A stretch of DNA of 4,565 bases from a virus (IMGVR_UViG_2660238548_000013), one strand, 5' to 3'. Positions 1,387 to 1,502 are shown, counted from the first letter of the stretch. Numbers and translations are program-made. Notes: a model not told the origin generated them from the letters alone.

Positions 1387-1416
1387 TTGACATCGTTAAT
1401 ACCTGTTGGTTAAAAA
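1387..1416 (+). promoter_or_regulatory. Candidate sigma70 promoter on plus strand (perfect -35 TTGACA, weak -10 TAAAAA)
   Basis: TTGACA at 1387-1392, 18-nt spacer, TAAAAA at 1411-1416; would start a short plus-strand transcript ending at the 1455-1502 hairpin/T-run. The -10 is weak, so this is tentative. Confidence 0.25.
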
Positions 1417-1454
1417 AGTGTCCTGCATGTTTTGCTTTGGATATAACGACATTT

Positions 1455-1502
1455 GCCGCCGGTTCTGGCTCCTTGTTTTCCCTGCCCCGGCGGCCTTTTT
1501 TT
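1455..1502 (+). terminator. Plus-strand hairpin plus T7 run (terminator-like) antisense to the 3' end of the esterase gene
   Basis: Perfect 8-bp GC stem gccgccgg (1455-1462) / ccggcggc (1487-1494) with a 24-nt loop, then ctttttttcc (T-run 1496-1502). Functions as terminator only on the plus strand; on the minus strand the hairpin is followed by a non-U-rich sequence. Confidence 0.3.

Follow-up and report, generated by a model that had tools for sequence, protein, structure and literature searches.

EcOnc33, an Hfq-bound RNA of an Sp6-type prophage, and the small RNA cassettes found at the same position in related prophages

Anatomy of the plus-strand RNA gene

We analysed a 4,565-nucleotide (nt) stretch of viral DNA (IMGVR_UViG_2660238548_000013, hereafter the window), which is the late-gene region of an Escherichia coli lambdoid prophage read in reverse, with all of its called genes on the minus strand. 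Between a gene for a NanS-p-type sialate O-acetylesterase and DUF1378, which encodes a membrane protein of 60 amino acids (aa), lies a spacer of 147 nt, and it is here, at 1387-1502, that an earlier note made from the sequence alone had proposed a small RNA (sRNA) on the plus strand. The Sp6 prophage of E. coli O157:H7 Sakai matches positions 248-4565 of the window at 99.17% identity, and the match is perfect (100%) at 1340-1530, the interval that includes the spacer. Sakai Sp6 carries at this place the locus of a published RNA, EcOnc33. Taken together, the data presented below make it very probable that 1387-1502 is the EcOnc33 gene, i.e. that it encodes an Hfq-bound RNA of Sp6-type prophages of Shiga toxin-producing E. 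coli (STEC) that acts in trans through a 5' seed. The features of the gene, with CLASH standing for crosslinking, ligation and sequencing of hybrids, are:

1387-1392, plus strand: TTGACA, -35 hexamer of the putative promoter
1411-1416, plus strand: TAAAAA, weak -10-like hexamer of the putative promoter, separated from the -35 by an 18-nt spacer
1423-1502, plus strand: EcOnc33 sRNA, predicted length 78-80 nt (published Northern band of ~71 nt)
1422-1443, plus strand: seed region at the single-stranded 5' end, CCUGCAUGUUUUGCUUUGGAUA, which supplies the EcOnc33 half of the CLASH hybrids with arcA and dps
1455-1494, plus strand: terminator hairpin with an 8-bp GC stem (arms 1455-1462 and 1487-1494) and a 24-nt loop
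1472-1483, plus strand: pyrimidine-rich loop motif CTTGTTTTCCCT, invariant in EcOnc33-type variants
1496-1502, plus strand: T7 tract after a single C (1495), giving a U-tail typical of Hfq-binding 3' ends

The -35 hexamer, the weak -10, the 8-bp GC stem and the T7 tract are all found where the earlier note had located them. The -10-like hexamer matches four of the six consensus positions, the final T being the one to stand out as missing, and it ends 7 nt 5' of the probable start at ~1423. The two stem arms, GCCGCCGG (1455-1462) and CCGGCGGC (1487-1494), are perfectly complementary. The RNA ends in the order AUUU, hairpin, C and U7, that is, with a U-tail of at least 6 after a U-rich stretch, the arrangement that characterises Hfq-binding sRNAs. 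Folded as the plus strand, the 147-nt spacer outdoes its shuffled versions (z = -3.26), and the minimum free energy structure leaves the 5' region of the sRNA mostly unpaired, apart from a weak 5-bp hairpin at the 5' end.

Such a hairpin followed by a T-run is not expected by chance. A custom terminator scan (perfect stem ≥8 bp, loop ≤30 nt and ≥6 T within 2 nt) returned a single site in the window, the hairpin and T-run at 1455-1502, and zero sites on the minus strand. When the window was shuffled 2000 times with its dinucleotides preserved, the scan returned on average 0.0055 sites per window over the two strands, and 11 of the shuffles contained any. Termination had been claimed for the plus orientation only, and this stands: read on the minus strand, the hairpin has A7 before it and AAAUG after it, and can therefore terminate plus-strand transcription alone. 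A generic promoter and terminator scan reported neither the promoter of the sRNA nor its terminator; it missed the 1455-1494 hairpin because it allows loops of only 3-8 nt, and the promoter because its rule demands a T at the last -10 position. Rfam covariance models gave zero matches at 1387-1502 at E ≤ 1. We also considered that the transcript might encode a small peptide and rejected this reading: its sole ATG (1427) has no Shine-Dalgarno sequence, and the frame has no stop ahead of the terminator.

Published detection of EcOnc33 and its partners in trans

EcOnc33 was first reported as an orphan Hfq-crosslinking site in Sakai (Tree et al., 2014, Mol Cell 55:199, Table S2; PMC4104026), and as an entity it has therefore been known since 2014. 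The entry places it in prophage Sp6 at 1557089-1557136 on the minus strand of Sakai, which corresponds to the plus strand of the window, between ECs1527 (the esterase) and ECs1528. Its Hfq peak was recovered in 5/5 passes with an area under the curve of 2.6e7, which ranks among the highest in the rows of Table S2 examined and puts EcOnc33, within those rows, among the most strongly Hfq-bound orphan RNAs of O157. The same table flags a Rho-independent terminator and gives a Northern band of ~71 nt (Tree et al., 2014), and the RNA was detected in uninduced cultures, both in MEM-HEPES and in LB.

The published Northern probe, AAATGTCGTTATATCCAAAGCAAAACATGCAGGAC, is the exact reverse complement of positions 1420-1454 (plus strand), with one match only. 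Since the probe is complementary to the plus strand, the RNA that it detected has plus-strand sense. The published coordinates refer to an older Sakai record, and from AsxR and from exactly placed CLASH read halves we obtained an offset of +137 to +141; once this is applied, the Hfq peak from crosslinking and analysis of cDNA at 1557089-1557136(-) falls at ~1416-1463 on the plus strand of the window.

Hybrids of EcOnc33 are also found in the RNase E-CLASH data of Waters et al. (2017, EMBO J 36:374; PMC5286369). An intramolecular hybrid, CCTGCCCCGGCGGCCTTT|ATTTGCCGCCGGTTCTGG, with a count of 99, joins both arms of the stem, showing that they pair in vivo. Other EcOnc33 read halves start at 1422 and 1424 or run through CCTTTTTT to 1501, and the 3' ends of the RNA fall inside the U-tract at 1496-1502. 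Probe, Hfq peak and CLASH ends together fix the RNA at ~1423 to ~1500-1502. The earlier note had predicted an independent plus-strand RNA of about 80 nt, starting near 1422-1426 and reaching the T-run, and had held that the lack of a plus-strand transcript would refute it; the Northern, crosslinking and CLASH data on the identical sequence agree with it. A genuine, experimentally detected sRNA gene was thus recovered from raw sequence alone, with its ends nearly right, although as a discovery this adds little because EcOnc33 has been in the literature since 2014.

The top-scoring CLASH partner of EcOnc33 is ECs5359, i.e. arcA, in its start region. This hybrid joins arcA positions -26 to +11 (ATTTAGGTAGCAAACATGCAGACC) to EcOnc33 1422-1442; its 5 reads come from both replicates and include both orientations, it overlaps with an Hfq site, and its false discovery rate (FDR) is 2.7e-4. 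A full-length RNAduplex calculation of the sRNA against arcA gave an unrealistic duplex of 70 nt and was discarded for a seed-restricted one, in which the predicted duplex (-22.8 kcal/mol) covers the AUG and the Shine-Dalgarno region. Shuffled seeds reached -15.2 ± 2.9 kcal/mol against arcA, and 1.2% of them did as well (p ~0.012). Two further reads join the 5' segment of EcOnc33 to the coding region of dps. The remaining hybrids are single reads, mostly on the GC-rich terminator, and the loop motif (1472-1483) appears in single-read hybrids only.

Hfq binding together with RNase E-CLASH hybrids to unlinked core-genome mRNAs is the signature of a trans-acting sRNA, and the data fit an Hfq-associated RNA of this kind expressed in the lysogen. 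The start region of arcA is its best-supported target, for which the duplex model predicts translational repression. The mechanism that we propose would begin with a sigma-70-type promoter (TTGACA, 18-nt spacer, TAAAAA) that fires in antisense to the late operon while this is silent in the lysogen. Transcription would run from ~1423 to the intrinsic terminator abutting the esterase stop codon and yield an RNA of ~71-80 nt with a single-stranded 5' end, a GC hairpin with a large loop, and a U-tail. Hfq would bind this RNA, and its 5' 20-30 nt would serve as the seed that pairs in trans with core-genome mRNAs; on arcA, the seed would cover the Shine-Dalgarno sequence and the AUG, leading to translational repression and RNase E-dependent decay. 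Through arcA, such pairing would tie a cryptic prophage to oxygen-responsive regulation in a way that can be tested directly.

One conserved frame with differing bodies

The 147-nt spacer was found in 363 of 5426 complete E. coli genomes, and in 309 of these at ≥99% identity; carriers at this level are mostly O157:H7, but include O103:H2 and O45:H2 strains. EcOnc33 is absent from Rfam and goes unannotated in RefSeq, there being no annotated feature at the spacer in 39 of the 40 E. coli records among the matches listed.

For the wider family we sampled 80 IMG/VR loci with relatives of the esterase C-terminus, two loci of enteropathogenic E. coli (EPEC) and the window itself, which gave 29 distinct sequences downstream of the esterase stop codon. 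A TTGACN -35 hexamer is present at the equivalent place in 29/29, followed 17-18 nt later by T(A/G)AAAA in nearly all. Next in every cassette comes a body that varies and measures 30-60 nt, followed by a GC-rich stem, perfectly paired over 6-11 bp and closed by a loop of 8-37 nt, and by a T5-T8 run that ends, where measurable, 1-7 nt from the esterase stop. The hairpin and T-run, whose loss from related prophages the earlier note had held would speak against a gene, are therefore kept throughout (29/29), and every related prophage examined has some sRNA cassette at this position, with the frame conserved and the bodies differing.

EcOnc33-type sequences make up 13 of the 29 (10 when trimmed to the RNA itself). 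Within them TTGACA is invariant (13/13), the stem is nearly so, and the 5' region CCUGCAU(G/U)UUUUGCU is largely kept. The loop motif CTTGTTTTCCCT is identical in all of them despite indels in the loop, and is more conserved than the 5' seed; it could be a contact for Hfq or serve as another seed, of an anti-Shine-Dalgarno-like kind. The stems of other cassette types are of different sequence yet perfect, with compensatory C-G to T-A changes, as in GCCGCCAGCA/TGCTGGCGGC vs GCCGCCAGTA/TACTGGCGGC and in CCGCCAGCG/CGCTGGCGG vs CCGCCAGT/ACTGGCGG. We distinguished at least five body types, namely the EcOnc33 type, the PasA/PasC type of EPEC, a homologue of Esr41, and two others; the three that were compared (EcOnc33, PasA/PasC and the Esr41 homologue) are mutually unrelated in sequence. 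Judged by sequence comparison, this pattern points to a cassette-like exchange of regulatory RNAs at the position between the esterase and the lysis genes.

The closest parallel is provided by PasA (85 nt) and PasC (79 nt) of EPEC E2348/69, both of them validated as Hfq sRNAs (Pearl Mizrahi et al., 2021; Zhu, Shabalina & Storz, bioRxiv 2026). Like EcOnc33, they lie antisense between a sialate esterase gene and the lysis genes (holin), have a TTGACA promoter with a T/A-rich -10, a GC stem, a large loop and T7, and bind Hfq; the T-run of PasC ends 1-2 nt from the esterase stop, and in EPEC, as in the window, the esterase has a PasD/STnc100 element upstream of it. DUF1378 and DUF826 are missing from the EPEC loci, however, and the seed and stem sequences there differ from those of EcOnc33. 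Local alignment against shuffles found no significant similarity of EcOnc33 to PasA (z = 0.68), to PasC (z = 0.52) or to a second cassette of the PasA locus (z = 0.39), and EcOnc33 is for this reason a positional and architectural analogue rather than a member of the PasA/PasC family. The literature names EcOnc51/52, not EcOnc33, as the PasA homologues of enterohaemorrhagic E. coli (EHEC). The positional link between EcOnc33 and PasA/PasC, and the conserved frame with differing bodies in all sampled prophages, were not found in the literature examined.

The PasA locus of EPEC prophage PP2 (L005 2450-2760, antisense) itself holds two tandem cassettes, PasA and then a PasC-like unit that ends 1 nt from the esterase stop. 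Since a second promoter/terminator unit follows PasA, the published 236-nt 'minor' form of PasA can be explained as read-through. A read of Sakai EcOnc51 matches the second cassette.

Esr41 (EcOnc14) is an EHEC-specific Hfq sRNA described on SpLE1. A homologue (TTTTCTCCATAGGTATTACCACCGCC..., z = 14) occurs in Stx-phage-like prophages at the position of EcOnc33, antisense and within 130 nt downstream of the esterase stop (IMG/VR loci L079-L085, L073, L075 and L078), and the esterase of these loci is ~75% identical to that of the window. EcOnc33 was itself tried as an Esr41 homologue and rejected, with an alignment z of 2 against shuffles. The seed of EcOnc32 (Sp3) looks related.

AsxR (EcOnc02), AgvB (EcOnc01) and EcOnc03 share with EcOnc33 that they are prophage-encoded, short, Hfq-bound and terminator-ended, and that they lie antisense to the late operon, downstream of PR'. 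They differ in lying upstream of the esterase and 3' of stx, in measuring 51-60 nt, and in sponging core sRNAs (FnrS, GcvB), whereas EcOnc33 has no known sRNA partner. Membership of this anti-sRNA family was rejected: a search of the window that tolerated up to 3 mismatches did not find its ~42-nt 3' module (GUAUCUCAUGC..UUGCCCGAACCC).

Several points weigh against reading the locus as a trans-acting sRNA gene with arcA among its targets. The -10 is weak and lacks the final T that is usually critical; the predicted 78-80 nt are slightly more than the ~71 nt of the Northern band, and no mapped 5' end was found in the published record examined. The Hfq-dependence column is blank for EcOnc33 (Tree et al., 2014, Table S2). 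A literature search with its name and sequence returned supplementary tables only, with no main-text mention, and no regulatory effect on any target is reported in the literature searched; there, EcOnc33 has no name beyond its serial number and no function. The stem of the subfamily shows 0 compensatory pairs, a count that is uninformative about covariation because the stem hardly varies. The arcA hybrid amounts to 5 reads, and it is the O157-type variant and those closest to it that pair best (-22.8 to -24.3 kcal/mol). G1429, needed for the best pairing, is a T in several variants of the subfamily, most of which reach -17.5 to -21.8 kcal/mol, although one that bears an insertion still reaches -22.8; for one divergent EcOnc33-type variant the predicted duplex is only -10.7 kcal/mol. 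Because pairing weakens in the G1429T and divergent variants, control of arcA is not a conserved property of the family.

Could the RNA then be a by-product, transcribed but functionless? On this account the promoter-like sequence and the terminator would be kept for some other purpose, such as insulation of the late operon or keeping antisense transcription out of the esterase gene. The absence of any EcOnc33 phenotype or validated target from the literature searched is in keeping with it, as are the variation of the seed among EcOnc33 relatives and the presence of at least five bodies in one promoter/terminator frame, where the frame rather than the body could be under selection. Yet insulation alone needs no promoter, and the -35 hexamer is kept along with the terminator in 29/29 variants; CCUGCAU-UUUUGCU and the loop motif are conserved in the subfamily beyond what a spacer needs. 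RNAs found at this position, PasA/PasC (by RIL-seq, the sequencing of interacting RNAs after their ligation) and Esr41, itself or as a homologue, are active or abundant Hfq sRNAs by experiment. We regard a functionless transcript as highly improbable. The same holds for its companion claim that Hfq binding reflects a generic effect of U-tailed hairpins and that the CLASH hybrids are noise: most of them are indeed single reads on the terminator, but the one with arcA is reproducible, has both orientations, lies over an Hfq site and passes the FDR threshold.

If EcOnc33 is a trans-acting sRNA, as we favour, a bolder proposal can be made: that it represses ArcA translation, and that the spacer between esterase and lysis genes is a modular sRNA slot with a constant promoter/terminator frame, through which lambdoid prophages have swapped at least five bodies, each bearing a seed. 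We put this forward tentatively, and are inclined to doubt it in its full form. Were it true, a host carrying an Sp6-type prophage would have its aerobic/anaerobic respiratory control rewired through the global redox regulator ArcA, and each body in the slot would hijack a different host regulon.

Neighbouring genes, possible action in cis and other elements of the window

The genes around EcOnc33, all on the minus strand, are:

4524-4565, minus strand: Q, 3' end (called gene)
3789-4383, minus strand: TerB-like open reading frame (ORF) fragments (called ORFs)
1508-3445, minus strand: NanS-p-type sialate O-acetylesterase (DUF1737 + SASA + DUF6645), convergent with the sRNA
1178-1360, minus strand: DUF1378, 60-aa membrane protein (PHROG of unknown function), divergent from the sRNA, start codon 27 nt from the sRNA -35 hexamer
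871-1140, minus strand: DUF826 (called gene)
580-795, minus strand: class II holin, holin S (called gene)
60-575, minus strand: YdfR/DUF1327 (called gene)

As the earlier note had it, the sRNA is divergent from the gene of the small membrane protein, running away from the DUF1378 start. Its claim that the RNA is antisense to the 3' end of the esterase message held in part. The RNA is antisense to the late message, but there is no overlap with the esterase ORF: the T-run ends at 1502 and the stop codon occupies 1508-1510, with 5 nt between them, and by that distance EcOnc33 opposes the intercistronic spacer rather than the ORF.

This geometry makes EcOnc33 fully complementary to the Q-antiterminated late transcript, and the alternative arises that it is a cis-antisense regulator, acting mainly on the complementary spacer of that transcript, 62-142 nt upstream of the DUF1378 start. 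It could do so by RNase III cleavage, transcriptional interference, titration, or the block of a ribosome standby site in the manner of IstR-1/tisB, and would thereby tune the lysis genes together with DUF1378 and DUF826; with the 60-aa protein it might form a type I toxin-antitoxin-like pair. With the -35 hexamer only 27 nt from the DUF1378 start, late and sRNA transcription must collide. DUF1378, a protein of unknown function with one N-terminal hydrophobic helix, adjoins the cassette at 78 of the 80 IMG/VR loci, among them all those of EcOnc33 type and of Esr41 type, and the two exceptions are truncated contigs.

The details of the locus fit such a regulator less well. EcOnc33 starts ~62 nt from the DUF1378 AUG and has no overlap with its Shine-Dalgarno sequence, AUG or ORF. 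Complementarity in trans to the start regions of DUF1378 (z = -0.19), DUF826, holin S, DUF1327 and the esterase is not above chance, z ranging from -0.44 to +0.27 for the neighbouring minus-strand translation starts. The promoter scan predicted no minus-strand promoter for DUF1378, which would thus be made only from the late operon after induction, whereas EcOnc33 is present in uninduced cultures. No toxicity of DUF1378 is known, PasA/PasC are found at this position in EPEC prophages devoid of DUF1378, and Hfq binding and the hybrids with unlinked mRNAs point to action in trans. Type I antisense RNAs such as IstR-1/tisB and OrzO/zorO do resemble EcOnc33 in being divergent from a small membrane-protein gene and complementary to sequence well upstream of its start codon. 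Here, however, there is no predicted toxin promoter, no known toxicity and no overlap with the start region, sRNAs of this position also occur without the membrane-protein gene, and EcOnc33 has Hfq-associated partners in trans. The type I toxin-antitoxin-like arrangement or cis control of read-through suggested by the earlier note finds no backing in these results, and we consider it unlikely that EcOnc33 works mainly in cis. A narrower effect on the complementary late transcript during induction, through RNase III, titration or collision, is conceivable, at a similarly low probability.

OOP RNA of phage lambda offers an instructive comparison: 77 nt long and equipped with a promoter and an intrinsic terminator of its own, it converges on a phage message to which it is antisense. 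OOP overlaps cII at the 3' end of its coding sequence and works in cis by way of RNase III; EcOnc33, unlike OOP, overlaps no ORF and has partners in trans.

Other candidate RNAs lie elsewhere in the window. Upstream of the esterase, the single significant Rfam match of the window is STnc100 at 3586-3752 on the minus strand (E = 4e-22), followed by a terminator with its stem at 3558-3540 and its T-run at 3539-3532. This element has the position of PasD1/PasD2 of EPEC and of EvrS/Esr023, a 154-nt oxygen-responsive sRNA of CP-933N, the equivalent prophage in EDL933, that destabilises z2269 mRNA and lowers expression of the enterocyte effacement locus (LEE). EvrS was tried as an identity for the plus-strand RNA and rejected: with its 154 nt and its place upstream of the esterase, it matches the STnc100-like element at ~3534-3688(-) instead, and that element (~3688 to 3534, minus strand) is probably the EvrS homologue. 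A CLASH read labelled 'ECs1525 5'UTR' and paired with EcOnc40 also maps to the STnc100-like element (3534-3752).

Some 80 nt downstream of the Q stop, a terminator ACCCGTCGCCAGGCGGGT with T7 lies at 4442-4425 (minus strand). The interval 4425-4524 on that strand is the expected position of the PR'/tR' short transcript, analogous to StxS of Stx phages, and Rfam gave there only a weak, terminator-driven match (suhB/mmgR, E = 0.66). The TerB/TciA-like and DUF3927 frames at 3789-4383 (minus strand) are short ORFs with in-frame stops and look like a pseudogenised moron between Q and the esterase.

The window and Sakai, identical in the sRNA, part company at the left end, where positions 1-247 diverge from Sp6. 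Positions 1-123 are the end of an insertion sequence (IS) element, with an IS1203/IS629-type match found in 4417 of 5426 genomes; the best matches of 124-600 are STEC strains of serotypes O103:H2 and O45:H2, and the YdfR/DUF1327 ORF has 171 aa in the window vs 114 aa in Sakai. Given those best matches, the window probably does not derive from Sakai. It is in this divergent segment that the description of EcOnc33 as the only plus-strand signal breaks down: a second terminator-like hairpin, AAGCACCTCATTTTTTGTTGGGGTGCTT, lies on the plus strand at 135-162 and, with the T5 that follows it, occupies 135-167.

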